Shown here in pieces: positions 15,259 through 54,379 of a stretch of DNA of 64,000 nt. The notes below the pieces were generated by a model. It was not told the DNA's origin, made no database searches, and saw only the letters and a list, made by a program, of their open reading frames with translations. The stretch's first letter is position 1, and the number at the start of each line of letters is the position of its first letter. This DNA comes from Patescibacteria group bacterium (GTDB taxonomy: Bacteria > Patescibacteriota > Microgenomatia > 2-02-FULL-39-11), in contig JAMCUI010000012.1 in the NCBI GenBank assembly GCA_023379265.1, positions 27,936-91,935 of the forward strand. The letters are read 5' to 3'. The position numbers were made by a program, and so were the translations under genes.

Positions 15259-15261
15259 CAC

Positions 15262-17521: not shown

Positions 17522-17734
17522 ATGTTCAGAAATATTATTTCTCCAGTACAAGCCTGGCTCATATCACAAGGCCGGTGCGTCGGGTGCGGCACCGCACTTT
17601 CAGGAGGCAGTAAAGGACAAATGACTGGAGAAGAACAGGAAATAACCTGCAGGAAATGCGGAAGGATATTTTTACGAAACAGAAAAACAGGACGGTATCG
17701 CAGGGCGCCGATTTCTTCTTCGCTTAAAAAATGA
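17522..17734 (+). CDS. Small zinc-ribbon protein (70 aa), hypothetical.
   Basis: CVGCG ... CRKCG four-Cys arrangement and a basic tail. Overlaps the mltG start by 4 nt (ATGA). Confidence 0.3.
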   Translation: MFRNIISPVQAWLISQGRCVGCGTALSGGSKGQMTGEEQEITCRKCGRIFLRNRKTGRYRRAPISSSLKK

Positions 17735-25870: not shown

Positions 25871-27535
25871 TCAGACGTTTGACTCTTGTACGTTTACAAC
25901 TTCCTGGGTAGTATCTATTAACACTCCTCTTCTAAATTCCTTGGCTCTCTTTATCATTTTGTAAAAGACGCTGATTTGGGGCACCTCCAGAAACCAGGAA
26001 AGGAAAAGGTATACGGACATGCCAGCAAGAGTGGCGATTCCCGTCAGAAATAAAAGATTGATTGTTTTTGTCGTATCAAAAACGAGCTGATCCAAAAGCT
26101 TCATGGGGATATACAACACTACTCCTGTTACAATTCCGGAGAGAAATATTTTTACCGCCGGCAGAATAAATTCTATTTTTGCGAAGCTTCCCACTTTTCT
26201 ATCCAAGAAAAAAGTCAGAAGAATTATCTGGGCAATACTGGCAATGGAAGTGGACAATCCCAAAGACCAAACATCCATATGAAGATTGAGGACAAAAATA
26301 AGTGATAATACAGTATTTAAACCGACCGATACTCCCCCTATAACAACAGGAGTTTTTGTATCATGAAGAGCGTAAAATGCCCTGGCTAAAAGCTGTATGA
26401 GTGACTGGGCAAAAAGGGAGATACTGAAATATGCCAGAGTTTTCCCCGTTATGACTGTACTATTCCAATCAAATAAAGTAGAAGCCCCGAAGACCAATCT
26501 GACCATAGGAATACGTAGGACTATAAGAATTGCCGAAATAGGAATAACCAGAAAAAGAATCTGGTGAAAAGCGGCAAGGAAAGTATTTTTGAATTCATCC
26601 ATATTCTTCTTGGCGTATAAAGATGAAAGGGATGGCAGAGTCGCTTGAGCAATACTGGCACCAAAAAGTCCAATTGGCACCTGCTGCAAATGCTGGGCAA
26701 AATTAAAAACCGTAACTGAAGCTGCTCCCAGAAGTGTTGATAGGATTAGATCAACTGTGGCATCAATCTGGGAAACTGCCAATCCCAAAGTTCGGGGCAA
26801 CATTAGTTTTCCCACTTCTCGTGTACCGGGGTTTGAAAGTGAAAGACTCCAATGATGCTTATATCCAAGTGACAAAACAAGCGGCACCTGTATAACGGTA
26901 AACAATACTGCCCCAATTACAACTCCTATTACCGGTGCATAAAGTCCTAAAAAGGGCGTCAGGAAGATGATACCCAAAATTATTCCTACGTTGTAAACTA
27001 CAGGCGCGAGTGACGGGATTATAAAATTCCTAAACGATTCTAGAATCCCCGTAAAAAAGTTGCCTATGATAAGCGGAAAAACCTGAGCTAAAATCATTAT
27101 TTGAGTGAACGAAGCCATAAGCGTTATTTCATGTCCGTCAAACCCCGGAGCCAGCAACATGGAAATCTGCCGAGCAAAAAATACGACCGGAAGGGAAAAG
27201 ATTACAAAAATCACCAGTCCCACATTTATAAGAGATGCAGCCATTTTGAAGGCTGCTTCCTTTCCCTTATTGTCCAGGTGATCGGTAAAAACAGGTATAA
27301 AAGCTGTTGCCAGAACCCCCATCACCAGAAGCTCAAAAATCATATTTGGGAGTCTGAATGCGGCATAGTATATGCCTAAATCCGACGGAGTAAACCTTGC
27401 CGCCAGAAGCCTGTCTCTAAATAATCCAAGCACTCTTGAGAGCGCTACCGTCACCATGATGATTGAGGCGGCAGAAAAGACACTATTTTGCCGGTGGGTT
27501 AAAATACGCAGAGTGTGTTTAAATAGCTTGACCAT
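25871..27535 (-). CDS. murJ: Lipid II flippase MurJ (MviN).
   Basis: 14-TM MOP-superfamily protein. N-terminal region ...SAASIIMVTVALSRVLGLFRDRLLAARFTPSDLGIYYAAFRLP matches the MurJ family. Confidence 0.8.
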   Translation of the reverse strand: MVKLFKHTLRILTHRQNSVFSAASIIMVTVALSRVLGLFRDRLLAARFTPSDLGIYYAAFRLPNMIFELLVMGVLATAFIPVFTDHLDNKGKEAAFKMAASLINVGLVIFVIFSLPVVFFARQISMLLAPGFDGHEITLMASFTQIMILAQVFPLIIGNFFTGILESFRNFIIPSLAPVVYNVGIILGIIFLTPFLGLYAPVIGVVIGAVLFTVIQVPLVLSLGYKHHWSLSLSNPGTREVGKLMLPRTLGLAVSQIDATVDLILSTLLGAASVTVFNFAQHLQQVPIGLFGASIAQATLPSLSSLYAKKNMDEFKNTFLAAFHQILFLVIPISAILIVLRIPMVRLVFGASTLFDWNSTVITGKTLAYFSISLFAQSLIQLLARAFYALHDTKTPVVIGGVSVGLNTVLSLIFVLNLHMDVWSLGLSTSIASIAQIILLTFFLDRKVGSFAKIEFILPAVKIFLSGIVTGVVLYIPMKLLDQLVFDTTKTINLLFLTGIATLAGMSVYLFLSWFLEVPQISVFYKMIKRAKEFRRGVLIDTTQEVVNVQESNV

Positions 27536-29525: not shown

Positions 29526-30953
29526 ATGTATAGAAAGGAAAAACGCATACCCACCATTTTGGCTCTTTTCATACTTTTTGCCGGAATCGGCAGTACTCTC
29601 TTTTTTGATAGATCAGCTCACACATTTACCTCTTCGGCCAAAAATCCAATTATTCCCCAAGAGGTACATATAAGCAATATTTCAGAAAATTCTTTTACTG
29701 TCTCATGGCTTACTTCTACTCCGGTTACCGCCATAGCAAAAATCACCGGGAATAGCATCCCAACAATAACTCTTATAGATGACCTTGACAATGACAACAT
29801 ACAAAGACCAAGGACAACCCACTATATTACTTTCAGAAACCTCAATCCCGATACGGCATATACAGTCCAGATATTTGATAACAATACTAACTGTCCAAAC
29901 AGCATTTACTGCCCGACAATAAAACTGAAAACTGGGACCAAGCTCCCAACCGCCCCTTCTCTACCTCCGGCAAAAGGAAAAATTATCGACATTACGGGAA
30001 AAGCGGCTGATGGAGCAATCGTCTATCTTACTCTTGGAAAGAGTGCGCTTTTATCCGGCAGAAGTGACAGTTTGGGACTTTGGGTCATACCTCTGAACAA
30101 CATCAGAAACCAAGACCTTTTAAGCCACATAGAAATTGCAGATACCGACCTACTGCAAATTTCAGCATACGTTGCACCACAGCAGACAACCTCAGGCGTA
30201 GTCGATGTCCTTTCAATAAGACAAAACCTACAAATACCGGACATGATTGTGGGAAACAATTATAATTTTATTAACCTTATCAGTAAAAGAGATCTACTGG
30301 CACAAATAAATGACCAGAAAATTCTTGGCGCACAAACAAAAGCAAATAGTGAAAAAATTTCAGGTTCTTCAGTGGGCGCAGATAGTATCGGTGGCTATAA
30401 CCTGATTTTCCCCTCTTCAAACGGAGATTACACAAGTGATACACAACCAAGATTTAGAGGGATTGGACCTAAAGGAAAGCAAATCTTAGTTACTGTCCGC
30501 TCATCACCCCAATCAGCCAAAGTGACTGTGGACCAAAACGGCAACTGGTATTGGCGGCCATCCCAGGCGCTTTCCCCTGGAACCCACTACATCAGTATCC
30601 AGGGATATGATGACTATGGCAATCCGGTAAAGATTACAAGGGAATTTATAGTCTTTAAGAGTGGAGAACAAGTCTTGGGGGAAGCTACAGCTTCTGCCAC
30701 TCTAACTCCTTCTCCCACTTCTACTCCAACTCCGGTTCCAACAAACATTCCACCTTTACCCACTAACACACCAGCGCCAACACCCATAAACTCGCCAATA
30801 CCCAGCCCGACATCTGCTCCGACAATCGCTTATATTTCACCTACCCTTGCACAAAATCCTCCGCGTACTGGATCATACCAAGCCACCGTAGCTTTATTGG
30901 GAGGAGGGGCTGCCCTTCTTCTTGCAGGCATCAAACTCTTTACTTCTCTGTAA
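29526..30953 (+). CDS. Cell-surface protein with N-terminal anchor, fibronectin-III domain, Ig-like domain, PT-rich linker and a C-terminal sorting-signal-like tail.
   Basis: FN3 hallmarks NISENSFTVSWL...YTVQI and a PTPxP linker. C-terminus NPPRTGSYQATVALLGGGAALLLAGIKLFTSL is motif, hydrophobic segment, then a Lys. Confidence 0.5.
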   Translation: MYRKEKRIPTILALFILFAGIGSTLFFDRSAHTFTSSAKNPIIPQEVHISNISENSFTVSWLTSTPVTAIAKITGNSIPTITLIDDLDNDNIQRPRTTHYITFRNLNPDTAYTVQIFDNNTNCPNSIYCPTIKLKTGTKLPTAPSLPPAKGKIIDITGKAADGAIVYLTLGKSALLSGRSDSLGLWVIPLNNIRNQDLLSHIEIADTDLLQISAYVAPQQTTSGVVDVLSIRQNLQIPDMIVGNNYNFINLISKRDLLAQINDQKILGAQTKANSEKISGSSVGADSIGGYNLIFPSSNGDYTSDTQPRFRGIGPKGKQILVTVRSSPQSAKVTVDQNGNWYWRPSQALSPGTHYISIQGYDDYGNPVKITREFIVFKSGEQVLGEATASATLTPSPTSTPTPVPTNIPPLPTNTPAPTPINSPIPSPTSAPTIAYISPTLAQNPPRTGSYQATVALLGGGAALLLAGIKLFTSL

Positions 30954-31019: not shown

Positions 31020-32129
31020 TTAGGGGATAATTTTGCAATTTGGATCCTGCATTTGGCACAAGATAAACTTATGTATCTCGTCAAAATTGCCAGTCCTTGG
31101 CGCCAACACCCATCTCCCATCATACTGCCAGTCAGGAGGATTTACTAAAAATCCTTTCCTTCTGTTGGGAGCGTTTGATAAAATATCGCCTGCATCCAAA
31201 ACCACTTTTCGCAAGGAACCATCTTTTAGTGTGGCAAAAAACCTTGCCATCTGTATCTTTTCCGACAGATTCATATCGGTAAGGACAGTCTTATTGAAAG
31301 CATCTATTACCTCCACGACCCGACGGGGATCAGTCCAAAACGAAGGCTTCATCACCTTGTCTTTTATTGCCAGTATTACTTTCTGTTGCCTCTGGTCTCT
31401 GGCAAAATCAGTTCCCTCCTCCCCTTGCGCATGCCTACTCCGGACAAATTTTAATGCTGTTGTACCATCCATATGTTGTAGACCGGTGTTAAAATGCACC
31501 GTCTCATATCTACAGGCAAATGTCGGGTCACCGACGCAAGTGTCATTTTCTTTACCGGCAATAGGATACATCGTATCGGTAAAAGCTGTAGACACGTTTA
31601 TATCGACTCCGTCCAAAAGATCAATCAGCCTCTCAAACCCCGAAAAATCGACAAGCACGGCATAATGTACCGGTTGGCCTACCACTTCTTCAATAGCCGA
31701 CTTTGCGAGTATAAAACCTCCTCCTTTTTCCTTTGCCTCCCCATAGTGATAAGCAGCATTTATCTTATCCTTCAGGCTATCAAGCCAAATATCCCTGGGA
31801 ATTGATACCATAAGTGCATCATGTTTTTGGAAATCAACACTGAGAAACATCATGGTATCGGTCAGATCAGCCCCTTCATGATTGCCACCACCGATTCCCA
31901 AAACAGCAATGTTTGTCCTGCCCTGATATGATTTCAGATTTGGCGTGGTATTAAATACGATACTTGATAAAAGGGACGGCGACAGATTATTGGCCGCGGC
32001 AAACTGATACGCCGGAAAATATATTTTAACGAGGAATAATGCTACCGCCAAAACAAAAATAGCCCCCAGTATAGAGGCTCTCAGAACCGGCAGATATTTT
32101 TGAATCCTTCTCTTAAAGTGATGAAGCAT
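31020..32129 (-). CDS. LytR-CpsA-Psr (LCP) family cell-wall polymer phosphotransferase.
   Basis: N-terminal TM segment. NIAVLGIGGG...TDTMMFLSVD and SIPRDIWL match LCP motifs, with RSRH downstream. Confidence 0.8.
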   Translation of the reverse strand: MLHHFKRRIQKYLPVLRASILGAIFVLAVALFLVKIYFPAYQFAAANNLSPSLLSSIVFNTTPNLKSYQGRTNIAVLGIGGGNHEGADLTDTMMFLSVDFQKHDALMVSIPRDIWLDSLKDKINAAYHYGEAKEKGGGFILAKSAIEEVVGQPVHYAVLVDFSGFERLIDLLDGVDINVSTAFTDTMYPIAGKENDTCVGDPTFACRYETVHFNTGLQHMDGTTALKFVRSRHAQGEEGTDFARDQRQQKVILAIKDKVMKPSFWTDPRRVVEVIDAFNKTVLTDMNLSEKIQMARFFATLKDGSLRKVVLDAGDILSNAPNRRKGFLVNPPDWQYDGRWVLAPRTGNFDEIHKFILCQMQDPNCKIIP

Positions 32130-32924: not shown

Positions 32925-34769
32925 ATGACAGACGGCACACTTCTAAATTCCTTAAATCCAGCCCAAAAAAAAGCCGTTCTTGCAACTGACGGCCCGATAC
33001 TGATTTTGGCCGGTGCAGGATCCGGAAAGACCAGAGTACTTACATATAAAGTGGCTTATCTGATTTTGGAAAAAGAAATACCGGCCGGAAATATACTCAT
33101 GGTAACATTCACCAATAAAGCTGCAGGGGAAATGAAGGATAGAATTACGTCACTTCTGAAAAAATCCGACGATCGACATGTATCCGATCTGCCGTTTGCC
33201 GGCACTTTCCATTCACTATGCGCCAGGATACTCAGGCGTCATGGCAGGGCAATCGGCATCACTCCCGATTTTCTCATCTACGACAGCCAAGACACGAAAG
33301 ATGCTATAAAGGAAGTCCTTGAGAACTTGGGTTTGGACCAAAAAAGGTTCCATCCTCCAGCTGTAACTTCTAACATCTCCCAAGCCAAAAACGAACTTAT
33401 TTCCGCCATTGAATACCAACAAATTGCCCGGGGTTATTTCCAGGAAAATATCGTTAAAGTTTATATCGAATACCAGAAACTTCTACGAGAAAGTAATGCC
33501 TTGGACTTTGACGATCTGCTTTTTTTCACAGTAGAGCTTTTCCGCAAAGATAAAGAGACGGCCGGATATTACCAAAATTTATTCAAATATGTCCTGGTTG
33601 ACGAATACCAGGATACCAACCATGCCCAGTATGAATTGACCCGACTTTTAAGTAAAAGGTGGAGAAATATATGTGTAGTAGGGGATGCTTCCCAAAGCAT
33701 CTATGCATGGAGGGGAGCGGATTTCAGGAATATATTGCGCTTCAAGGAAGATTTCCCTGACTGCAAAGTATTTCATCTTGAGCAAAACTACCGTTCCACA
33801 CAGACGATACTTTCAGCTGCTTATTCTATCGTCTCACGGAATAATTCACACCCCATCCTAAAATTATGGACAGAGAAAAGTGGCGGCGAGCTCATCACTT
33901 CATTTCAAGCAAGAAACGAACAGGAGGAGGCTCTTTTTGTCATAGGAAAAATTACCGAGTCAAAATATAAAAACAGTCATTTGCACTTCTCAGACTTTGC
34001 CGTACTTTACCGGACTAATGCCCAAAGCCGAGTTCTCGAGGAAGCACTTCTCCATACCGGACTCCCGTATATACTGGTGGGCGGGGTCAGATTTTATGAA
34101 CGGAAAGAAATAAAAGATGTCCTCTCATATTTGAGACTTTTGATAAACCCAAAAGACAGTATTTCTTACAGGAGGATAGAAAAACTGGGCAAAAAGAAAA
34201 TGGCAAGGTTTATGGATTTTGCCGGGAATTTCAGAAGTGAAATAAAAAAAAACAATCTCTCTTCACTTGAAGTGATGGATAAGGCTCTGCAGGAGTCATC
34301 CTATCTTGACCTTTATGATAAAAACAACGAGGAAGATCTCTACCGTTTGGAAAATATAAAAGAATTGCGCTCAGTTGCCTCTCAATTCCCAAATTTGAAT
34401 AATTTTCTGGAAAATGTGGCGCTTGTCGAGCAGGAATATTTGCCGGATCGCCCAGCCAATGACAACAAAAAGGATGCCATAACTCTTATGACGCTTCACG
34501 CAGCCAAAGGTTTGGAATTCCGCAATATATTCATGGTTGGCATGGAAGAAGGCCTTTTCCCACATGCCAGATCGATAATGGAGCCGATGGAACTGGAGGA
34601 AGAAAGAAGACTCTGCTATGTGGGGATTACCCGCGCCATGGACAAGCTTTATCTTACTTATACTTCAAGAAGGCTATATTTTGGCCAAAGGTCAACCAAC
34701 CCCGTCTCCCGCTTTTTATTGGATATTCCCCAGGATTTGGTACAACAATCAACGGAACAGGTAATTTAA
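32925..34769 (+). CDS. pcrA: UvrD/PcrA-type superfamily-1 DNA helicase (compact, 614 aa).
   Basis: Walker A AGAGSGKTRVLT, DEYQDTN (motif II), and the TLHAAKGLEF and VGITRA motifs. Confidence 0.8.
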   Translation: MTDGTLLNSLNPAQKKAVLATDGPILILAGAGSGKTRVLTYKVAYLILEKEIPAGNILMVTFTNKAAGEMKDRITSLLKKSDDRHVSDLPFAGTFHSLCARILRRHGRAIGITPDFLIYDSQDTKDAIKEVLENLGLDQKRFHPPAVTSNISQAKNELISAIEYQQIARGYFQENIVKVYIEYQKLLRESNALDFDDLLFFTVELFRKDKETAGYYQNLFKYVLVDEYQDTNHAQYELTRLLSKRWRNICVVGDASQSIYAWRGADFRNILRFKEDFPDCKVFHLEQNYRSTQTILSAAYSIVSRNNSHPILKLWTEKSGGELITSFQARNEQEEALFVIGKITESKYKNSHLHFSDFAVLYRTNAQSRVLEEALLHTGLPYILVGGVRFYERKEIKDVLSYLRLLINPKDSISYRRIEKLGKKKMARFMDFAGNFRSEIKKNNLSSLEVMDKALQESSYLDLYDKNNEEDLYRLENIKELRSVASQFPNLNNFLENVALVEQEYLPDRPANDNKKDAITLMTLHAAKGLEFRNIFMVGMEEGLFPHARSIMEPMELEEERRLCYVGITRAMDKLYLTYTSRRLYFGQRSTNPVSRFLLDIPQDLVQQSTEQVI

Positions 34770-34815
34770 CAATATATTTTTCGAAGGTTGCATACAGAAT
34801 GTTTACTCCAACTTT

Positions 34816-35298
34816 TTACTGACAACTTACTACTTTTTCCAATCCGGCATTGTAGGTATAATTTTTCTCGCTTGCCTGAAGTACTATAACATACCCAGGA
34901 GTAACCACCTGGGAATACATCTGGTTTCTTTTAGGACAACCCATACTGGTATCGCTCCAATCTTTTTGCGTTATACTGATCACTTGGATATCACTGACAG
35001 ACATATCAAGCTTTTTAGCCAAATCAGCTTTTGCTATACCGGTATAAGTATCCTGCTGCTTCAGGTCACCCCCATATGGGACAATATCTGCCGGAGTGGG
35101 TGTAGGAATTGGAGTTGAGGTTGGCACTGCACCCAGCAATACTTTCGCAGCCGTTATAACACCGCCTCCGGAAACCGCATTCAGAATGACTACTGCCACC
35201 AAAATAACTCCTGCAATAATCCATTTGGACCTCAATACCGATTTTGGTTTCCTTCTGACTAATCTTCTTACCACTTTCTTTTTGATTTTGGTTTTCAT
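34816..35298 (-). CDS. Membrane-anchored hypothetical protein (basic N-terminus, TM segment, PT linker, small C-terminal domain with 2 Cys).
   Basis: Complete ORF with TM segment WIIAGVILVAVVIL. Confidence 0.35.
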   Translation of the reverse strand: MKTKIKKKVVRRLVRRKPKSVLRSKWIIAGVILVAVVILNAVSGGGVITAAKVLLGAVPTSTPIPTPTPADIVPYGGDLKQQDTYTGIAKADLAKKLDMSVSDIQVISITQKDWSDTSMGCPKRNQMYSQVVTPGYVIVLQASEKNYTYNAGLEKVVSCQ

Positions 35299-35380
35299 GC
35301 TTGAAATTTAAGTATATATCACTACCAATTATTCATATAATAACATAAAATAACATTTGTGAAGTACCCCTCATAAATAT

Positions 35381-36409
35381 ATGGATATAAAGTCAGTTTC
35401 CGAAAAAGACAGAATTGTATTTGACAAACTGGCCACCCACCCTCTGCAGTCATGGGAATGGGGGGAATTTCGCAAAAAAACAGGAATTGACGTAGTGAGA
35501 TTAGGCAGATTTGACAATGATAAACTTGTAGAGACAGCCCAGATCACTTTCCACAAGCTTCCATTTACTTCCTATACCATAGGCTATCTGCCAAAATGCG
35601 GCCTAATAAGTCCTGAAATGCTTATGAGATTGGTTGCACTTGGTAAAGAAAAAGACTGTATCTTCATCAAATTTGAGCCGAATATAGAGAAAAATAATTG
35701 GGAATTGTCCCATCTCAGTGGAAGGACGCATGTACTTCCCTCACCCCACCCGCTTTTTACTAAGTACACTTTCCAACTTGATATCTCAAAATCTGAAAAA
35801 GAACTTTTGTCTGTTATGCATCCCAAAACCAGATACAACATCAAGGTTGCCCAAAAACACAGTGTAACCGTGACGGAAGATAACTCAGAAGATGCTTTCA
35901 AGAAGTACCTGGAACTTACTTTTGAAACAACCAGAAGGCAAAAATTCTATGCTCATAGCCAACGTTATCATACTCTCATGTGGGAGACGCTATACCCCTG
36001 TGGCATCGCCCATCTTTTGACCGCTAGTTTTGAAGATGTGGGCCATAAACATATTCTTGTGACGTGGGTTCTTTTTCTTTTCAATAAAGTTATTTACTAT
36101 CCCTACGGCGCCTCAAGCGACAGCTTCCGAAACGTCATGGCCTCAAATCTTATGATGTGGGAAGCAATAAGATGGGGTAAAAAAATGGGCGCAAAGAAAT
36201 TTGACATGTGGGGCGCATTAGGTCCAAACCCCTCTCCCAATGAGTCATGGTATGGATTCCACCGGTTCAAACAGGGATACGGGGCAACACTGGTAGAATT
36301 TGCGGGAAGTTTTGATATTGTGATACAACCGGCAGCATATAAAATCTTCAACCTTTTGCATACCGGCCGGGAAATTTTTCTGAAAATAAAAAGTAACTTC
36401 CGCAGCTAA
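35381..36409 (+). CDS. FemABX-family peptidoglycan bridge-forming aminoacyltransferase-like protein.
   Basis: Tandem GNAT-like halves, LQSWEWGEFRKKTG near the N-terminus, and a C-terminal region matching Fem-family proteins. Confidence 0.55.
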   Translation: MDIKSVSEKDRIVFDKLATHPLQSWEWGEFRKKTGIDVVRLGRFDNDKLVETAQITFHKLPFTSYTIGYLPKCGLISPEMLMRLVALGKEKDCIFIKFEPNIEKNNWELSHLSGRTHVLPSPHPLFTKYTFQLDISKSEKELLSVMHPKTRYNIKVAQKHSVTVTEDNSEDAFKKYLELTFETTRRQKFYAHSQRYHTLMWETLYPCGIAHLLTASFEDVGHKHILVTWVLFLFNKVIYYPYGASSDSFRNVMASNLMMWEAIRWGKKMGAKKFDMWGALGPNPSPNESWYGFHRFKQGYGATLVEFAGSFDIVIQPAAYKIFNLLHTGREIFLKIKSNFRS

Positions 36410-36428
36410 CTGAAAAAAATTTCCGTCT

Positions 36429-38099
36429 ATGATTACCTACTTTAACATCCGAAGACATGTCAATCTGTTTTTGGTTTCGGCTGTCGTTTTTCTATGCATT
36501 GCCACATATATTAACATCCTGCCAAATAAGCTTTTTTTTGACGATGAAGAACTGATATACAAGAACTACTATGTGCAAAACCTGAGATACTTACCCCAAT
36601 ACTTTACCCAAAATATGATTGCCGGTGCCGGCAAGATAAGCAATATGTATCGGCCTATCCTTCTTACTTCTTTCGCCGCAGACTATGCAGTATGGAAAGA
36701 TAGTCCTTTTGGTTTTCATCTAACCAGTATAGTTCTCCATTCTATAAATGCTGTTTTCATTTTTTTTCTTATTCTGAAATTGTTTGGCAACAAATTTATC
36801 GCATTTTTTTCCTCACTTTTTTTTGCGGTACACCCGGCACTTTCCGAAGCAGTCATCTATGCCTCAGGCAGGACCGACCCATTATATGCGTTCTTTATGC
36901 TCTGCAGCCTCCTATTCTTTATCTCCTGCCTGGAAAAGAAAAAAAACGGATGGATAAGATATACCGTTTCAATCCTTTTTTTTATTCTGTCGCTTCTGTC
37001 AAAGGAAACAGCCATAGTGTTTCCCCTTATTCTTCCGCTAGTTATCATCGCTTTCCTACATACCAAAAATATTAAAGAGCTAAATAACAAAAAAATACGC
37101 TTGGTAAAACTAAAGGTTAACAATCTTAATGTTTTACTTAAAACAGCTCTACTGTCCCTCCCTTTCTTTACCATCAGTTTTATTTACTTTATTTTGCGGT
37201 TAACAATCCTCAATTTTGCTGACACATTAAATTTTTATCAGAATAATGCCGGTACAACTGGCACGTCTGTGGCTTTTTTATACAGCCAAAATCTTCCAGT
37301 ACGTCTCTATACTTTCTCCAAAGTTTTTTTTGATTATGTCAGTCTTATATTTTTCCCCAACTATCTTGCCATTGCCAGAACTCCCCAAATAATTACGACA
37401 ATTCTCAACCATTGGGTTATCCTGTTTATTTTTGCCATCATTATTTTTGTTATCGCCGCAAGACACAATTGGCCCAAAAACGGTATTATCGCTTTTGCTC
37501 TTTTGTGGTTTTTCATCCTTATTCTGCCTGTTTCAGGCATCATACCCATAAATAATATTGAATCTGAACATTATCTTTATCTACCCTCATTATCTTTTTT
37601 TGTCATCATCTCCTATTTCGTCTATTTTATATGGCAAAAGGTAAAATCTTCTGAAATAAAAACAGCTTTTGCGATGCTTCTTATTATTATCACTCTTCTA
37701 CTATCCCTGCGGACAGTCATCCGGACTTTTGATTGGCGGGATCCAATCACTTTTTACAACATCGCCCTTTCCCAATCTCCCGGCAACCTGCCTATGCACA
37801 ACAATCTGGCAATGGCTTATGAGGAAACAGGCAATATCAGTCTGGCAATTGAGCAGTATAAAAATATTATTGCCGTGGGAGATTTTTATCCCAACATCCA
37901 CCACAACCTGGCCAATGCTTATGTAAAGCAGGGTGAATATAAGAAGGCTGAAACTGAGTATAAAAAGGCGCTTTCAATGGATCCGAAATTCTACTTCAGT
38001 TACTATGGATTACTTGATCTTTACCAGAAAACGGGTAATGCTTCAAAAGCGGCTGAAATGAAATCCGTTATTGACCGACTGCAAAAGGGACAGCAATAA
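36429..38099 (+). CDS. GT-C-fold membrane glycosyltransferase with C-terminal TPR repeats (PMT/TMTC/ArnT-like).
   Basis: N-terminal acidic loop FFDDEELIYKNYY (DE motif), then ~11 TM helices. Four TPR-like repeats lie at the C-terminus (NLAMAYEETGNISLAIEQY..., NLANAYVKQGEYKKAETEYKKAL...). Confidence 0.6.
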   Translation: MITYFNIRRHVNLFLVSAVVFLCIATYINILPNKLFFDDEELIYKNYYVQNLRYLPQYFTQNMIAGAGKISNMYRPILLTSFAADYAVWKDSPFGFHLTSIVLHSINAVFIFFLILKLFGNKFIAFFSSLFFAVHPALSEAVIYASGRTDPLYAFFMLCSLLFFISCLEKKKNGWIRYTVSILFFILSLLSKETAIVFPLILPLVIIAFLHTKNIKELNNKKIRLVKLKVNNLNVLLKTALLSLPFFTISFIYFILRLTILNFADTLNFYQNNAGTTGTSVAFLYSQNLPVRLYTFSKVFFDYVSLIFFPNYLAIARTPQIITTILNHWVILFIFAIIIFVIAARHNWPKNGIIAFALLWFFILILPVSGIIPINNIESEHYLYLPSLSFFVIISYFVYFIWQKVKSSEIKTAFAMLLIIITLLLSLRTVIRTFDWRDPITFYNIALSQSPGNLPMHNNLAMAYEETGNISLAIEQYKNIIAVGDFYPNIHHNLANAYVKQGEYKKAETEYKKALSMDPKFYFSYYGLLDLYQKTGNASKAAEMKSVIDRLQKGQQ

Positions 38100-38102
38100 A
38101 TT

Positions 38103-39050
38103 ATGACTGATATTAGACAATCAAAGCTGTTTGCAAATTTCATGAAAGATTTAGGCTGGAAAGCCGAAAAAATACAAAATTCTTACGTATACCTGCGCCG
38201 GTTTCCATTTCTGGGATACTTTGCCAAAATACCCAAAATCACTCCCCCTCTGCCTCTCACCGACATAGACGCATTAAGACTAAAATATAATATCTTCCAG
38301 ATAAAAATCGCACCTGACATCCTTACTGACAACAGGCAATATAAAATACTCCTCAAACAACTAGCAATAAAAAAATTCAAGATGGACATAAGTCCTTTTA
38401 ATCCTACCACAGATATTCGGTTTGATCTGACAATTGATGGAAAAGATATCTTTTCCAATTTTACCGAAGCAAAAAGAAGAGGTGTCAGAAGAGCCATAAA
38501 AAACCACATCACGGTAATCGAGTCAGACGACTATGAATCTTTTATAAAGATCAGGAAAAAGCAATACTCACCAGTCGGTTTTCTTATTGCACCGGAGATG
38601 CACAAACTCTGGAGAAATTTTTACCCCTCCCATGCCTCTTTGCTATTGGCCTACTCAAATACCGATACAAGCACCCACAATGTCTTTTCTGAGATCCCAA
38701 AACAAGTGAAATTTCTTTCGGGAAAAAACAATCCGGAACCGGTAGCCGGCATTCTTTTACTTTTTTATAATAGCGTTGCGTACTATTGGTATGCTTCGGC
38801 ACTAAAAAAAGGTAAGAGACTCTTTGCCCCGACACTTTTGGTTTGGCAAGCGCTCAGGATTTCCCAAAAAAGAGGTTGTAAAGAATTCACTTTTGAGGGA
38901 ATATATGATGAACGGTTTCCCAAGGCAGCCCAATCATGGAAAGGTTTTACCAAATTTAAGGAAGGTTTCGGAGGAAAAAAAGTAGTTTATATGGAAAACT
39001 TTTCCCAAATCCCCAATCCTGTTTTAGGCCTATTACACTTCGTTATGTAG
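38103..39050 (+). CDS. Second FemABX/GNAT-like aminoacyltransferase-family protein.
   Basis: Similar two-lobed GNAT architecture; LLLFYNSVAYYWYASA resembles Fem-family acceptor lobes. Starts 3 nt after the GT-C gene. Confidence 0.45.
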   Translation: MTDIRQSKLFANFMKDLGWKAEKIQNSYVYLRRFPFLGYFAKIPKITPPLPLTDIDALRLKYNIFQIKIAPDILTDNRQYKILLKQLAIKKFKMDISPFNPTTDIRFDLTIDGKDIFSNFTEAKRRGVRRAIKNHITVIESDDYESFIKIRKKQYSPVGFLIAPEMHKLWRNFYPSHASLLLAYSNTDTSTHNVFSEIPKQVKFLSGKNNPEPVAGILLLFYNSVAYYWYASALKKGKRLFAPTLLVWQALRISQKRGCKEFTFEGIYDERFPKAAQSWKGFTKFKEGFGGKKVVYMENFSQIPNPVLGLLHFVM

Positions 39051-39815
39051 TTTTAGCCATTTTGTGTCCATATCCGGAAAGTCAGCAGGAATTTTATCCA
39101 TCAGAGCCCGCAGGCCGAAGACTTCCGTCGCATAATGTCCTCCGGCAATAAGATGGATTCCTGCTTCGCGAAAAAGCTCCCTGTTCCATTCATGCACCTC
39201 ACCGGTGATGTAAAGATCCACTTTTTCGTCTATCAAATCCTGCATTTCAGATGCTCCAGGAGCACCTTTACCGGACAATGCCACAACTTTTTTAACCTTT
39301 TCCGGCCCAAAATCATATATGGTAAGGCGCTTACTCAGATAGGGTCTCAGGTTCCCAATGACATTTTCCAATGTTTGCGATTTCTCAAAGACTCCCATCC
39401 ATCCCCAAGGATATCCATGGAAGAAATATTGTGCTTCTTTTTTTGCACCAATTGTTTCCAGGATTTGGGCATTGTTGCCTACTTGCGGATGGGCGTCAAG
39501 AAGAAAATGGTAACCGAAAAGTGATATGTCGTTTTGCAAAAGATATTCTATCCGGTTTTGGAAAACTTCATCATAGCGGTTTGTCGGTGGCAGATTAAAA
39601 GAATGATGGACAATAATTGCGTCACAATTTTCTTTTTGTGCCAGCTGGAAGAGTCCCAGTGAAGCCGAAACTCCAAAACCTATTTTTTTCACTTCCTCCT
39701 TACCCTTAACCAAAAGTCCATTGGTCATAAATGGATCAATTCTGCCCACCTCAAGCTTTTTGTCAAAAAGCATATAGCTATCAAGAAACTTTTGCAATTG
39801 CGGTAGATAGACCAT
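39033..39815 (-). CDS. Nif3-family (YqfO/YbgI, DUF34) dinuclear-metal protein.
   Basis: DAIIVHHS and IAGGHYATE metal-binding motifs. Confidence 0.75.
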   Translation of the reverse strand: MVYLPQLQKFLDSYMLFDKKLEVGRIDPFMTNGLLVKGKEEVKKIGFGVSASLGLFQLAQKENCDAIIVHHSFNLPPTNRYDEVFQNRIEYLLQNDISLFGYHFLLDAHPQVGNNAQILETIGAKKEAQYFFHGYPWGWMGVFEKSQTLENVIGNLRPYLSKRLTIYDFGPEKVKKVVALSGKGAPGASEMQDLIDEKVDLYITGEVHEWNRELFREAGIHLIAGGHYATEVFGLRALMDKIPADFPDMDTKWLKLHNEV

Positions 39816-39820
39816 AATAT

Positions 39821-40042
39821 TTATCTGTGAAACAGATTCTCTATTTTTACATCCAGTTTTCCGGCAATTTTCATCAACAGTTTGAGAGAGGGACTCTCCC
39901 GACCTTGCTCTATATATCCCATATACACTCTGCTTATTCCCAATCTAGCAGCAAACTCTTCCTGAGTAAAGTCTTTCTGTTTTCTCAACTTTTGAATTTT
40001 TTTACCTAATATTTTTAGAGCTCTTGCAGTGCTTCCCCGCAT
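39821..40042 (-). CDS. XRE-family (Cro/C1) helix-turn-helix transcriptional regulator.
   Basis: FTQEEFAARLGISRVYMGYIEQGRESPSLKLLMKIAGKL is a typical HTH_3 domain. Confidence 0.6.
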   Translation of the reverse strand: MRGSTARALKILGKKIQKLRKQKDFTQEEFAARLGISRVYMGYIEQGRESPSLKLLMKIAGKLDVKIENLFHR

Positions 40043-51174: not shown

Positions 51175-52659
51175 ATGGAAAGAATCTATACCGCAAACTC
51201 CCGTTCTTTCACAAGATTGTTTGAGATCATTCTTCCCGTCACAACCTGGCTTATCATCACGCTGCCCATTTGGCTTTCTCCTTTCCACCCGGCAATAGTA
51301 GCTTATTTTATACTCACTTTTGATGTCTATTTCTTCTATAAATCCCTATCAACAGCTGTCTTTTCGACCAAATCCTATTTGAGGCTGCAACATTTATCAA
51401 AACTAGACTGGTCCAAGATGGCTAAAAAAATGGCCGGCTACAACAAGATGTACCATGCAGTCATTATACCCAATTATATGGAAAAAGTAGAAAAAATCAG
51501 GTTGACACTGGATTATCTTAAAAACCAGGATTTCCCCACAAATAGGATTATTATCCTTTTGGCCATGGAAGAAAGGGAAGGTAAAATGGCCAAGGAAAGG
51601 GCAAAACAGATTTTGAAAGAGTATAAGAACTCTTTCTACCGCATAGAGGTTACTTTCCATCCAGATCTAACTGGCGAACTGAAAGGAAAAGCCAGCAATT
51701 CAGCCTGGGCAGCAAAACATCTGAGCAGAATGGTAAGGAAAATGGGTATCGATACACAATATGTCACAGTCACTTCATGTGATGCCGACTCACTCCTGCC
51801 GCAAAAATACTTTTCATATCTTACATATCAGTTCCTCTCTGATCCCGACCGTTACTACCATTTTTATTGGGCGCCAGTACTTCTCTATAGCAATTTCTGG
51901 GAAGTACCGCTTCCAATTAGGCTTCAGGCAACTGTATCCAGTATCGTAAGGCTTGCTGGAATATCAAAACCTGATTCACTTATCCAGATCTCTACTTATT
52001 CACTCTCATTATCCATGCTGGAAAAGATAGGCTATTGGGATACTGATATAGTACCAGAAGATTGGCATATATTTCTCCAGGCTTTCTTTTCTTTAGGAGA
52101 GAAAGTCAAAACAATCCCGATCCATCTTGTTATCTCCCGAGATGCGGTAAACGGCACATCCCTTTTGGGCACTTTCAAGTCAAGGTATGAACAGGAAAAA
52201 CGCTGGGCTTGGGGGGTGACTGATGTACCCTATGCTCTTAATAAATTCTTTTCTGACAATAAATTGCCTTTCCTGACCAAATTCTTCCGTTTATTCTATG
52301 TGGTTGAATCCCATCTTTTTTGGCCCACTTCATTTTTCCTCTTGACACTCGGAGCTTCCATTCCTGCTCTTGTCAATCCGGCTTTCAGTCGAACATCACT
52401 GGGATACAATCTGCCTAAAATGTCTGGTCTTATACTGACAGTATCAATGGTTTTTGTCATCGTACTTATATTTATTGATACAAAGTCCAGGCCAAAACGG
52501 CCTTCCTCCTATTCTGTAGCCAAAACGCCACTTCTTATCTTTCAGTGGATTCTGCTTCCGGCCATCTCATTTTTCTTTTCTTCACTTCCGGCTCTTGAAG
52601 CACATACCAGACTACTTTTGGGTAAAAGATTAGAGTATAAGGTAACAGAAAAAATATAA
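51175..52659 (+). CDS. Membrane-embedded processive GT2 glycosyltransferase (cellulose/chitin-synthase-like).
   Basis: TSCDADS (D,D), QEKRWAWG (QxxRW), and flanking TM helices. Confidence 0.65.
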   Translation: MERIYTANSRSFTRLFEIILPVTTWLIITLPIWLSPFHPAIVAYFILTFDVYFFYKSLSTAVFSTKSYLRLQHLSKLDWSKMAKKMAGYNKMYHAVIIPNYMEKVEKIRLTLDYLKNQDFPTNRIIILLAMEEREGKMAKERAKQILKEYKNSFYRIEVTFHPDLTGELKGKASNSAWAAKHLSRMVRKMGIDTQYVTVTSCDADSLLPQKYFSYLTYQFLSDPDRYYHFYWAPVLLYSNFWEVPLPIRLQATVSSIVRLAGISKPDSLIQISTYSLSLSMLEKIGYWDTDIVPEDWHIFLQAFFSLGEKVKTIPIHLVISRDAVNGTSLLGTFKSRYEQEKRWAWGVTDVPYALNKFFSDNKLPFLTKFFRLFYVVESHLFWPTSFFLLTLGASIPALVNPAFSRTSLGYNLPKMSGLILTVSMVFVIVLIFIDTKSRPKRPSSYSVAKTPLLIFQWILLPAISFFFSSLPALEAHTRLLLGKRLEYKVTEKI

Positions 52660-53940
52660 ATGCTGAACTTCCTTTTTTATCATACGCCGGTATTCTACCT
52701 CATCCAATCTATCTGGCGGGATGAAGCCTTCTCTTACTATATGGCCAAACCTGATATATTTCATGTAATTGCTAATACTGCCAACGATTTTAATCCGCCT
52801 CTTTACTATCTCCTACTTCACTTCTGGATTTTTATCGCCGGCAAGTCAGACGAATTCTTGCGTATACTCTCCTTTATCCCTTTCATACTTACTGTTTATT
52901 TTGCCTATCTTTTTGCCCGCAGAGCATTTTCCAAGAAATTCGCTTTTTTTGTTGCAACTTTCACACTTTTAAACCCCATGCTTTTGGTCTATAGTTTCGA
53001 GATAAGAATGTATTCCCTCTACGCTTTTTTTGCCATGGTCTCAGCATACTGCCTTTTGCGCAAAAATTGGAAATGGTATGCGGTAGCGAGTGTCCTTGGG
53101 CTTTACTCACATTCCTTTTTTGCCATGATACCCGTCTCCTATGTCTTTTACTATTTCCTTATCAAACGTCTGAATAAAAAGACTCTTTGGTACCTCTTAA
53201 ACCCATTTCTTTTTTTCCTTCCCTGGCTGCCGGTTCTGACGGTGCAATTTCTTCACTCAGGCAACTCATGGATTTTCCCTGTAGATCTGCAACTTATAAA
53301 TTCAGTTTTGGGAAATCTGCTTACTTCTTATGAAGGTACCCCCGGCCACCTCTGGGCCTACACCGCCATTCTCTCAGGCATTATGCTCATCTTTTTCCTT
53401 GTCGGACTTATAAGAGACAAGAAAAAATCCCTTCTTGCCCTGACACCGATTTTTTTTACACTCATCCCGGTATTGGGTTTTTCTATCATTAAACGTCCGA
53501 TATATGTCAATCGCTATATGATCTTTATTACTGTCTTTGAAATATTGGGCATCTCGTACGGCGTTTGGAATATCAAAAACAAAATGCTTAAAAATGCCTC
53601 TATGGCTTTCTGGCTTATACTGGTTTTAGGAGTAAATCTTTACCTGCCGCCATACCACTCCAAAACGGACTTTAAGACAGCATTTAGGGAAATAAACAAG
53701 ATTGCTAGCACAAATGATTATGTCTACTCAAAGACTCCAATAGGTTTTCTAGAATCAGCCTACTATTTCAAAAATGACGGGAAAGTCTTCGTCTACAATC
53801 CCAATCACATTTCCATACCATACTATATAGGCGTCAATGTGGTTTTTCCCAACGCCTCAAAAACTACATTCCCTCCCTACCCGGCTCGAACTTTTCTGGT
53901 AAACGACGACGCATCATACGAAATGGTCATCAATAGATAA
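52660..53940 (+). CDS. GT-C-fold membrane glycosyltransferase (ArnT/PMT_2-like).
   Basis: RDEAFSYY (DE-x-Y-type motif) in the first loop and ~12 TM helices. Start immediately abuts the GT2 gene. Confidence 0.6.
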   Translation: MLNFLFYHTPVFYLIQSIWRDEAFSYYMAKPDIFHVIANTANDFNPPLYYLLLHFWIFIAGKSDEFLRILSFIPFILTVYFAYLFARRAFSKKFAFFVATFTLLNPMLLVYSFEIRMYSLYAFFAMVSAYCLLRKNWKWYAVASVLGLYSHSFFAMIPVSYVFYYFLIKRLNKKTLWYLLNPFLFFLPWLPVLTVQFLHSGNSWIFPVDLQLINSVLGNLLTSYEGTPGHLWAYTAILSGIMLIFFLVGLIRDKKKSLLALTPIFFTLIPVLGFSIIKRPIYVNRYMIFITVFEILGISYGVWNIKNKMLKNASMAFWLILVLGVNLYLPPYHSKTDFKTAFREINKIASTNDYVYSKTPIGFLESAYYFKNDGKVFVYNPNHISIPYYIGVNVVFPNASKTTFPPYPARTFLVNDDASYEMVINR

Positions 53941-53992
53941 TATAAGTTAGAAAATAATTAGTAATTAACAATAAGAGCAAAATGCTTCCAAA

Positions 53993-54379
53993 ATGATTAA
54001 ACCGAAAATAAACATATTCAAAAAAATGCAGCCGGATATATCAGGTACACTTTCTGATCCTTTCATAAGCCGAGCGACAAAAATTTTCCTTCTTATCATG
54101 GTCGCTTTTGCAATCCTTGCCATTTGGAAATGGAAACAGATGCCGCCGCAACTGCCTCTTTTTTACTCGTTACCCAGAAGTACAGATACATTGGGGACCA
54201 AACTGCAATTTTTCTCATTACCTCTTTTTTCACTTGTTATTTTTTCATTGAATACTTTTATTGCCTCTTTTTTTTATAAAAAAGACAAGCTTATATCAGC
54301 ACTCCTTGTGGGTGGGGCCTGCATCATTTCGTTTCTCTTTTTTATTACATATCTAAAAATATTGCTTTTGGTAGCCTGA
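53993..54379 (+). CDS. Small membrane protein (128 aa), hypothetical.
   Basis: 3-4 hydrophobic helices. Sits between the GT-C and WecA-like genes. Confidence 0.3.
   Translation: MIKPKINIFKKMQPDISGTLSDPFISRATKIFLLIMVAFAILAIWKWKQMPPQLPLFYSLPRSTDTLGTKLQFFSLPLFSLVIFSLNTFIASFFYKKDKLISALLVGGACIISFLFFITYLKILLLVA

Follow-up and report, generated by a model that had tools for sequence, protein, structure and literature searches.

Two Fem-family genes flanking a predicted TMTC/PMT-like glycosyltransferase gene in a Gottesmanbacteria-like CPR genome: an apparent lineage-specific gene-order variant

Results

The stretch of DNA analyzed here (the window; 64,000 nt) comes from a tiny groundwater bacterium of the CPR (Gottesmanbacteria-like). 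Its ORF list revealed three abutting genes, all on the forward strand: Fem1 (35381-36409, 342 aa), a GT-C/TPR gene (36429-38099, 556 aa), and Fem2 (38103-39050, 315 aa). Fem1 and the GT-C gene are separated by 19 nt, not by 20 nt as a preliminary description of the locus had stated, whereas the 3-nt gap that it gave between the GT-C gene and Fem2 was correct. An AT-rich intergenic region of 82 nt (35299..35380, + strand) lies between a divergent gene (34816-35298, − strand) and Fem1; it contains TATAAT and would be where the promoter of the trio most likely lies. In the window, the trio is flanked by one divergent and one convergent gene and shows no internal terminator signal. Because a promoter and terminator consensus scan of positions 34600-39900 gave nothing above shuffled sequences, the operon structure was deduced from gene geometry. 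A tRNA scan across the 64-kb window detected zero tRNA genes, so no dedicated tRNA accompanies the trio.

The window also encodes envelope functions, namely two sortases, MurJ, MltG, and LCP, together with S/T/P-rich proteins carrying C-terminal anchors; Ser/Thr/Pro-rich secreted proteins and sortase-type surface proteins are abundant. A second GT-C gene paired with a GT2 gene and one GT4 gene are present as well.

Fem1 (35381..36409, +) matched the FemAB family PF02388 with an E-value of 2.3e-33 (116.1 bits, cut-off 24), and as a single sequence it matched S. aureus FemX (6snr) in the PDB at 1.1e-19. A profile of its orthologues matched 6snr (1.4e-38), FemA (1.9e-16), and Weissella FemX (2e-7), and the 6snr match, a sequence alignment rather than a structure model, covered both GNAT-like subdomains of 6snr (aa 10-237 and 283-413), which in Fem enzymes together make up the substrate channel. 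Fem1 remained far under the NCBIfam equivalog cut-offs, scoring 29.7 against 500 for NF047883 (Weissella-type FemX) and 34.8 against 260 for TIGR03019 (PEP-CTERM FemAB). A database entry 100% identical to Fem1 is named [quoted passage not shown]. Fem1 was annotated as a FemX-like, putatively aminoacyl-tRNA-dependent peptidyltransferase with a tandem GNAT fold and without a coiled-coil arm.

Fem2 (38103..39050, +) is a divergent, shorter paralogue, also with a tandem GNAT fold and without a coiled-coil. Its 315 aa compare with 278-300 aa in its orthologues, and it carries a variable 25-aa insertion at aa ~186-212. It matched PF02388 at 2.4e-12 (46.8 bits, cut-off 24) and, as a profile, 6snr in the PDB at 1.4e-10; its score against TIGR03019 was 21.9 bits (cut-off 260). 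Foldseek analysis of the AF2 model (pLDDT 91.2) revealed matches to 6snr (E=1.4e-17, TM 0.76), FemA (TM 0.69), and Weissella FemX (TM 0.67), and also to Sbb17/Sba18 and MprF aaPGS domains.

The alignments of both Fem1 and Fem2 jump over 6snr residues ~232-305, and the coiled-coil of S. aureus FemX spans residues 235-297 of 6snr (PMC8280954). The two proteins are 22-25% identical to each other and have the invariant motif GF..FK.G.G in common. F296-K297 of Fem1 and F285-K286 of Fem2 are invariant across their orthologues and aligned with the FK of S. aureus FemX and FemA; against Weissella FemX, the HMM alignment was offset by 3 residues from the conserved C-terminal Phe-Lys, whose lysine, Lys305, we take to be catalytic in that enzyme. 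A coiled-coil arm is typical of staphylococcal FemX/A/B and MurM but not of every Fem enzyme, and because Weissella FemX also lacks it, its absence here rules out the staphylococcal subtype only, not Fem membership. As the preliminary description held, the two flanking genes are Fem-family (FemABX, PF02388) members; the best match of both is S. aureus FemX. By homology, a peptidoglycan precursor was assumed to be the acceptor and aminoacyl-tRNA the donor.

In the middle protein, aa 1-434 (36429..37730, +) correspond to a predicted GT-C (TMTC/PMT-like) membrane glycosyltransferase domain with 11 predicted TM segments and an N-in orientation. The AF2 model of the whole protein (pLDDT 92.2, pTM 0.92) showed a multi-pass, 11-TM GT-C architecture, and Foldseek matched it to AglB (3wak, E=4e-5), STT3, and Pmt4 (9i5k), although with weak scores (TM ~0.4). 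Pfam returned 0 families at E<=1 for aa 1-434, Pfam and NCBIfam scans of the whole protein returned TPR matches only, and a profile of the membrane domain had 0 matches at E<=10 among PDB sequences; the GT-C call therefore rests on the model, the weak Foldseek scores, and the motifs. Of the PMT_2 and TPR domains that had been expected, TPR was matched, whereas PMT_2 was absent from the membrane domain in the window and was seen in some homologues. Among 13 GT-C homologues, Pfam detected PMT_2 in 2 (8e-8), PMT in 1 (8e-6), and TMTC_DUF1736 in 3 (best 2e-3). Precomputed PMT_2/PMT matches were present in some of the best 120 GT-C homologues listed, and JGI annotates several homologues as "protein O-mannosyl-transferase".

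Directly after TM1, in external loop 1, lies the putative catalytic acidic motif D38-D39 (36540..36545, +), both residues of which are invariant in 60 of 60 aligned homologues; the loop-1 DE motif that had been proposed is thus present, as F36-D38-D39-E40-E41 within FFDDEE. Table 4 of PMC7801869 defines TMTC motifs M1-M7, with M1 being the DD of EL1. A motif-only comparison with this table identified M1 (DD) and M2 (S71-x-x-Y74-R75-P76) in EL1, M3 (R148-x-D150) in EL2, and M4 (K192-E193-T194) in EL3. In EL5, M7 reads E380-H381-x-x-Y384, the phosphate-binding Arg of TMTC being replaced by a His that is invariant family-wide, and M5 (DW) and M6 (PxxP) were not evident.

The C-terminal TPR domain (aa 439-552; 37743..38084, +) gave Pfam matches (TPR_1/2/8 and others) at aa 435-545 and Foldseek matches to CTPR and OGT TPRs. 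Four repeats had been reported; TPRs are present, but in the AF2 model six of the seven helices pair up as three TPRs and the remaining one caps them, which is not strictly four repeats. Lysine and arginine account for 10 of 32 residues in predicted cytoplasmic loops vs 10 of 159 outside. This positive-inside bias and the 11-TM count predict an extracytoplasmic position for EL1, EL3, EL5, and the TPRs, and the conserved acidic/His motifs all fall on this predicted outer side. The AF2 model, Foldseek, homologue Pfam matches, DD motif, and TPR matches uphold the description of a 556-aa GT-C membrane glycosyltransferase with C-terminal TPRs. Judged from its sequence, the protein is most likely a TMTC/PMT-like GT-C enzyme, with a predicted polyprenyl-phosphate-sugar donor and a Ser/Thr protein acceptor.

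Gene order was compared across 73 informative metagenome loci anchored on Fem2 and 80 genome loci anchored on the GT gene, in which Fem genes were searched within 6 kb. Fem1 directly abutted Fem2 in 62/73 Fem2-anchored loci (median gap 0 nt), and the GT gene lay between them in 11/73; it was thus missing between the Fem genes in 85% of these loci, about half of those from the closest relatives among them. Among the GT-anchored loci, the GT-C/TPR gene stood alone in 65/80, the 6 kb around it being free of Fem genes, and these included other CPR, Omnitrophota, Planctomycetes, and Elusimicrobia. A combined Fem profile HMM, applied in case the GT-alone loci hid divergent Fem genes, found none. One Gottesmanbacteria subclade retained the full trio, at 10 distinct genome loci and at 11 metagenome loci. 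Distinct Fem1-GT pair loci numbered 5, and a sister clade had this pair without Fem2. The trio, proposed earlier as a unit, therefore holds together in that subclade only, and in both the Fem2- and the GT-anchored loci the three genes were not inherited together across relatives. No Fem-GT fusion protein occurred among the best 120 matches of either search (Fem1 or GT-C).

Tandem loci were spread over the two major clades of the Fem1 tree, whereas GT-bearing loci were confined to one of them; in the GT tree, the GT genes of the GT-bearing loci formed a single clade. One tandem locus (L090) keeps a C-terminal GT remnant, and because this persists in the tandem of Fem genes, the GT gene must have been deleted there. 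Another locus (L012) carries a trio-clade GT gene without Fem neighbours. This distribution fits a single GT insertion followed by losses.

The conserved backbone reads LCP–TIM–UvrD–Fem1–(GT)–Fem2–NIF3–AddA and includes unrelated housekeeping genes; because TIM, UvrD, and AddA are equally syntenic, the adjacency of the Fem and GT genes has little functional weight. Every Fem-linked locus had the LCP ligase gene three genes upstream; this gene runs on the opposite strand, and TIM and UvrD lie in between. At most loci, the Fem1-GT and GT-Fem2 junctions were tight or overlapping (-22 to +26 nt), with GT identities of 38-92%. That the GT gene stayed next to Fem1 while its sequence diverged to as little as 38% identity could be more than chance and the result of selection for co-expression. 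Because relatives mostly keep the Fem pair without the GT gene, we read the trio as an apparent gene-order variant of one lineage rather than as a new pathway of coupled reactions.

Discussion

Like femAB of S. aureus and murMN of S. pneumoniae, the locus contains two adjacent Fem paralogues, both of which have a tandem GNAT fold and keep an F-K motif, and which abut directly in most relatives; like Weissella viridescens FemX, both lack the coiled-coil arm. Unlike femAB and murMN, the pair is split here by a GT-C gene, includes an unusually short Fem2 (278-315 aa with its orthologues), and resides in a CPR bacterium. The Fem2 model also differs from solved Fem enzymes in being only roughly 11-16% identical to them in the Foldseek alignments.

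Eukaryotic TMTC1-4 belong to CAZy family GT105 and possess a longer TPR region of 8-10 repeats, as against only ~3.5 TPRs in the window protein. The predicted layout, in which TPRs on the extracytoplasmic or lumenal side follow a membrane domain of 11 TM segments with its N terminus inside, corresponds to that described for TMTC1-4 in PMC7801869, as do the positions of DD and S..YRP, RxD, KET, and E.xxY in the external loops, and some homologues show weak TMTC_DUF1736 matches. Unlike TMTC1-4, the membrane domain falls under every Pfam threshold, and a bacterial polyprenyl-phosphate sugar would serve as donor. The literature searched yielded no characterized bacterial TMTC-like member. With actinobacterial Pmt/Ppm1 and with ArnT, PglB, and AglB the protein shares the GT-C fold and a putatively catalytic acidic motif in external loop 1, and, as in the Pmt/Ppm1 system, there are S/T/P-rich secreted proteins that could act as acceptors. 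However, a TPR domain stands where a MIR or periplasmic OST-type domain would be, the fold likeness is weak, and, unlike in Pmt/Ppm1, no polyprenyl-phosphate-sugar synthase (Ppm1/GtrB-type donor synthase) was found adjoining the locus.

The locus is, in our judgment, probably a femAB/murMN-like peptidoglycan-branching tandem with an inserted TMTC-like O-glycosyltransferase, the genes being probably co-expressed and their products chemically independent. The Fem1/Fem2 tandem, comparable to femAB or murMN, would be the conserved core of a co-directional three-gene envelope unit, for which we infer co-transcription. Fem enzymes require aminoacyl-tRNA and are cytoplasmic. By homology, Fem1 and Fem2 would transfer successive amino acids from aminoacyl-tRNAs onto the stem peptide of a peptidoglycan precursor in the cytoplasm; the FemX-like Fem1 would act first and Fem2 would then extend the branch. 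The product would be a branched Gram-positive-type wall of the kind to which sortases anchor surface proteins. The TMTC-like gene would have lodged directly downstream of Fem1 in one Microgenomates lineage, and hence between the Fem genes in the Gottesmanbacteria-like genome. Its product would most likely receive its sugar from a polyprenyl-phosphate carrier on the outside of the membrane and O-glycosylate extracytoplasmic acceptors that the TPR domain picks; of these, the Ser/Thr/Pro-rich secreted proteins and the sortase-type surface proteins of the window are the most plausible. Literature searches on bacterial TMTC-like enzymes, Fem genes in CPR, and this gene combination found nothing specific; in a preprint on Saccharibacteria pili, pilin O-glycosylation is predicted only.

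The preliminary description had suggested coupled glycosylation and aminoacylation of one substrate. This is unsupported, because Fem enzymes act in the cytoplasm whereas the GT-C motifs and TPRs are predicted to be outside, and the adjacency is unstable. A flipped lipid-linked intermediate could in principle link both membrane faces, and with MurJ encoded in the window, a Fem-built Ser/Thr branch on Lipid II might be flipped by MurJ and recognized by the TPRs, which bind peptides, so that the GT-C enzyme O-glycosylates the branch or a neighbouring sugar to give a glycosylated cross-bridge. Ser/Thr hydroxyls are targets of PMT/TMTC-type enzymes as presented in PMC7801869, and the tight, often overlapping junctions persist across the whole range of GT identity. 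Nevertheless, such a pathway appears quite improbable given that the GT gene is absent from most tandems and was deleted at one of them, that the sister clade has Fem1-GT without Fem2, that fusions were absent among the best matches, that unrelated neighbours are equally syntenic, and that lineages without an adjacent Fem gene, diderm phyla among them, commonly carry GT orthologues that keep the same invariant motifs. To our knowledge, a glycosylated peptidoglycan cross-bridge is unknown in any bacterium. It is very doubtful that, in the trio-keeping Gottesmanbacteria subclade, the TMTC-like enzyme was recruited to peptidoglycan, its TPRs recognizing the Fem-built branch on flipped Lipid II or nascent strands and the enzyme O-glycosylating the branch Ser/Thr.

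Two other readings separate the proteins differently. The GT-C/TPR protein might glycosylate a non-protein envelope polymer (teichoic-acid-like or LCP-attached; cf. YfhO, ArnT, and Emb/Aft-type enzymes) while the Fem proteins act separately on peptidoglycan; lipids or polysaccharides are often decorated by GT-C enzymes, and the window holds the second GT-C+GT2 pair and the GT4. We consider this unlikely, since the DD, S..YRP, RxD, KET, and E[H/R]xxY motifs and the 11-TM/C-terminal TPR layout match the TMTC1-4 protein O-mannosyltransferases specifically and TPRs typically bind protein or peptide; the constantly linked LCP gene, which would suit a polymer, is on the opposite strand beyond TIM and UvrD. 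That Fem1 and Fem2 are not bridge enzymes and instead aminoacylate a lipid, exopolysaccharide, or small molecule (cf. MprF-type, PEP-CTERM FemAB, and Sbb17-type proteins), with the GT-C enzyme perhaps sharing a glycan, is very unlikely. Both in sequence and in fold, they match peptidoglycan enzymes best, namely S. aureus FemX, FemA, and Weissella FemX, and the tandem arrangement and sortase-rich surroundings fit wall branching. The Fem2 fold does also match Sbb17/Sba18 and MprF aaPGS, and TIGR03019 is the best NCBIfam match of both Fem proteins, but at only 35 and 22 bits; both lack the arm of the Lipid II-dependent staphylococcal enzymes, but so does Weissella FemX, a genuine peptidoglycan enzyme.

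Under the favoured reading of a branching tandem with an inserted glycosyltransferase gene, all three genes belong to known protein families and the trio defines no new system; because the GT gene entered the Fem tandem in one lineage, the trio alone is no evidence for coupled chemistry. By analogy, a conserved femAB-like tandem in a CPR lineage implies a branched, Gram-positive-type peptidoglycan, which fits the sortase-rich surface biology. The large bacterial TMTC-like GT-C/TPR family, widespread in CPR, Omnitrophota, and Planctomycetes, provides candidate protein O-glycosyltransferases that would be prokaryotic relatives of the human cadherin O-mannosyltransferases.

Gene organization of the locus

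Fem1 (35381–36409, plus strand, 342 aa), GT-C/TPR (36429–38099, plus, 556 aa) and Fem2 (38103–39050, plus, 315 aa) are separated by gaps of 19 nt and 3 nt; the preliminary description had given the second correctly and the first as 20 nt. Since a divergent gene for a small membrane protein (34816–35298, minus) precedes the trio and a convergent NIF3 gene (39033–39815, minus; 18-nt overlap with the Fem2 ORF) follows it, the three genes form a unit of their own, judged by gene geometry. Promoter and terminator consensus scans yielded nothing above chance, and GC content is approximately 40% with even composition. Fem1 is 100% identical to the entry 'peptidoglycan bridge formation glycyltransferase FemA/FemB family protein [Patescibacteria group bacterium]', and for each of the three proteins the closest named relatives belong to Candidatus Gottesmanbacteria (Microgenomates group, CPR).

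Fem1 and Fem2

Pfam searches confirmed that both genes flanking GT-C belong to the Fem family, as had been proposed, with FemAB matches over the curated threshold for Fem1 (E = 2.3e-33) and Fem2 (E = 2.4e-12); neither reached any NCBIfam equivalog threshold. The top solved relative of Fem1 in a single-sequence search was S. aureus FemX (PDB 6snr, 1.1e-19), and a profile of Fem1 orthologues matched 6snr (1.4e-38), FemA (1.9e-16), and Weissella FemX (2e-7). The Fem2 profile matched 6snr at 1.4e-10, and the AlphaFold model of Fem2 (pLDDT 91.2) superposed on S. aureus FemX, FemA, and Weissella FemX with TM-scores of 0.76, 0.69, and 0.67, respectively. FemX/FemA matches to this model outranked other aminoacyl-tRNA transferases (Sbb17/Sba18 and MprF synthase domains).

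End-to-end alignment of Fem1 and Fem2 showed only 22–25% identity. Both carry an invariant GF..FK.G.G motif, and in alignments its F-K falls on the FK of S. aureus FemX and FemA; its Lys may be the counterpart of catalytic Lys305 of Weissella FemX. Whereas staphylococcal Fem enzymes possess a coiled-coil arm, Fem1 and Fem2 lack one, as does Weissella FemX: both alignments jump over 6snr residues 232–305, and the coiled-coil of that structure comprises residues 235–297 (PMC8280954). Fem2 has an insertion of about 25 residues (aa ~186–212; 38658–38738), modeled with low confidence (pLDDT ~60), which occurs in a few orthologues, is missing from most, and lies at the exact position of the coiled-coil arm in staphylococcal FemX and FemA. 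At one metagenome locus (L123:2977-5867), two Fem2-like genes come after Fem1, a tandem of three Fem genes that recalls FemX/A/B sets.

Fold and motifs of the GT-C/TPR protein

Pfam analysis of the whole GT-C/TPR protein returned TPR matches alone (aa 435–545); the membrane domain by itself had no Pfam match, and its profile had none among PDB sequences. A model built from a 60-sequence alignment (pLDDT 92.2, pTM 0.92) retrieved in Foldseek, as the sole membrane proteins, the GT-C enzymes AglB (archaeal, E = 4e-5), STT3, and Pmt4. Some homologues match PMT_2, PMT, or TMTC_DUF1736, and several bear the JGI name 'protein O-mannosyl-transferase'. The modeled fold, these annotations, and the sequence motifs support assignment of the middle gene as a GT-C glycosyltransferase. 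The earlier reading of a GT-C enzyme with C-terminal TPR thus held in substance, except that its four repeats become three plus a cap in the seven-helix TPR region of the model; of the PMT_2 and TPR matches it had anticipated, TPR was found in the window protein and PMT_2 in some homologues. No profile placed the window GT-C itself in TMTC or PMT_2.

The model helices could be assigned as 11 TM segments with a strong positive-inside bias (K+R 10/32 in cytoplasmic loops versus 10/159 outside), and every conserved acidic/His motif and the TPR domain are therefore predicted to lie on the outer face of the membrane. The same 11-TM, N-in, TPR-out layout is the architecture proposed for TMTC (PMC7801869).

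Eisenhaber et al. defined a motif set for human TMTC1–4 (PMC7801869, Table 4), and comparison by motif revealed that residues invariant in the 60 GT-C homologues match it: D38-D39 (M1), S71..Y74-R75-P76 (M2, SHKSYRP), R148-x-D150 (M3), and K192-E193-T194 (M4). D38-D39 directly follows TM1, bearing out the predicted acidic motif in loop 1. M5 and M6 were not evident. M7 (ERxxY) corresponds to E380-H381-x-x-Y384, with His in place of Arg family-wide: Glu-His (37566–37571) occurs in 60/60 aligned bacterial homologues, whereas eukaryotic TMTC and OST/PglB-type GT-C enzymes have a conserved Arg at the His position. This conserved Arg is described as touching the donor phosphate, and the Glu-His variant may point to another donor or another mode of binding. 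Adjacent divergent GT-C/TPR paralogue pairs were observed in Parcubacteria-, Saccharibacteria-, and Omnitrophota-type loci (L018, L043, L067, L070, L071, L074, L078, and L084), with the second copy forming its own deep clade in the GT tree.

Conservation and history of the arrangement

Scanning one genome per species with the GT-C membrane domain yielded 80 loci, in which Fem genes flank GT-C in its closest clade only. The full trio was present at 10 distinct loci (GT identity 45–92%) and a Fem1-GT pair without Fem2 at five (38–39%), one of them from Levyibacteriota. The remaining 65/80, from Parcubacteria-type CPR, Saccharibacteria, Doudnabacteria, Omnitrophota, Planctomycetes, and Elusimicrobia, had no Fem gene within 6 kb, and a combined Fem profile HMM likewise found none in the GT-alone loci. 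In the GT tree, Fem-linked GT-C proteins formed a single clade nested in the stand-alone family; this clade includes one member (L012) without Fem neighbors. All Fem-linked loci examined share the backbone LCP(−), TIM(−), UvrD(+), Fem1(+), GT(+), the LCP-TIM-UvrD block lying 5′ of Fem1, and UvrD overlaps Fem1 in the pair clade; synteny is thus no weaker for unrelated housekeeping genes than for the trio. Many contigs titled 'uncultured Gammaproteobacteria', 'Planctomycetales', or 'Pseudomonadales bacterium' clearly belong to CPR/Microgenomates when judged by gene content and best matches; these are MAG TPA_asm records (including L006, L009, L015-L017, and L020-L022) whose taxonomy labels look unreliable.

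Searching metagenomes with the Fem2 alignment, an approach that does not presuppose GT-C, gave 80 loci, 73 with informative upstream sequence. Fem1 abuts Fem2 directly in 62 of these 73 (median gap 0 nt), and GT-C lies between them in only 11. Among relatives sharing about 48% or more Fem2 identity, the closest group, 11 loci were trios and 10 were tandems, and the more distant ones (36–45%) were all tandem. In the Fem1 tree, tandem loci occurred in both major clades and GT-bearing loci in one only, interspersed with tandem lineages. The 235-nt Fem1-Fem2 gap of one tandem-only locus retains a 39-residue remnant of the C-terminal TPR of GT-C (L090:4765-4881; tblastn 4e-5, with 51% identity to aa 501–539 of the window protein), which is direct evidence of secondary GT-C deletion.

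With 62/73 Fem2 loci in tandem and 65/80 GT loci Fem-less, the trio is not a conserved unit, which counts in part against the proposal of the preliminary description; it is a lineage-specific gene-order variant that has been broken repeatedly. The simplest history would start from an ancestral femAB-like tandem on an LCP-TIM-UvrD-…-AddA backbone; in one lineage of Microgenomates the GT-C/TPR gene would have been inserted once, downstream of Fem1, and either GT-C or Fem2 would then have been lost several times.

Envelope genes in the window

The window contains two sortases, MurJ (Lipid II flippase, 25871–27535), MltG/YceG (17731–18696), an LCP (LytR-CpsA-Psr) ligase (31020–32129), a second GT-C beside a GT2, and a GT4, together with several secreted proteins having Ser/Thr/Pro-rich linkers and anchor-like C-terminal tails. 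Sortase 1 (2122–2799, minus) adjoins Ser/Thr/Pro-rich secreted proteins ending in a hydrophobic segment and basic tail (2742–3266 and 3312–5819, minus), and sortase 2 (15262–15972, plus) follows a 735-aa protein without a Pfam match (within 13051–15972, plus); the proteins beside both sortases are likely their substrates. The fn3/Big_13 surface protein encoded at 29526–30953 (plus) combines a 40-residue linker rich in Pro, Thr, and Ser with a C-terminal NPPRTG motif and, after it, a hydrophobic tail, which may together represent a variant sorting signal. It is a plausible O-glycosylation acceptor, and in relatives, too, its gene is kept upstream of LCP. The second envelope glycosylation cluster (51175–55465, plus) comprises GT2 (Glyco_trans_2_3, 494 aa), directly followed by GT-C (PMT_2, 426 aa, no TPR), and then GT4, an MraY/WecA-type transferase. 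At 612 aa, the alanyl-tRNA synthetase (11209–13047, plus) is short for a bacterial AlaRS and ends just past the second additional domain.

Functional interpretation

Because Fem enzymes need aminoacyl-tRNA, their activity is cytoplasmic, with UDP-MurNAc-pentapeptide or Lipid II as the substrate (PMC2655667, PMC8280954). The GT-C active site and TPR are predicted to face outward, with a polyprenyl-phosphate sugar as donor. The membrane thus separates the two chemistries, and only a flipped lipid-linked intermediate could bring them together. We regard glycosylation of the Fem-built branch itself by GT-C, a sharpened form of the coupling suggested earlier, as improbable. Glycosylation of a non-protein wall polymer by GT-C is also unlikely, if very slightly less so, and action of the Fem-like enzymes on an acceptor other than peptidoglycan appears the least probable.

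Given the richness of the window in envelope genes, we favor, with some confidence, a reading in which the Fem tandem branches peptidoglycan and the TMTC-like enzyme modifies proteins. Fem1 and Fem2 would build a peptide branch on peptidoglycan in two steps, GT-C/TPR would O-glycosylate secreted or surface proteins, and both activities would be co-expressed in the trio lineage without chemical coupling.

All three proteins are of already known kinds; our literature search found no account of the Fem/GT-C/Fem combination, of a characterized bacterial TMTC-like enzyme, or of Fem genes in CPR. The analysis delineates a large uncharacterized family of TMTC-like proteins in prokaryotes, in which the E-R motif takes the form E-H. 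We infer a conserved femAB-like tandem in many Microgenomates, and branched peptidoglycan is hence probable in many of these bacteria.
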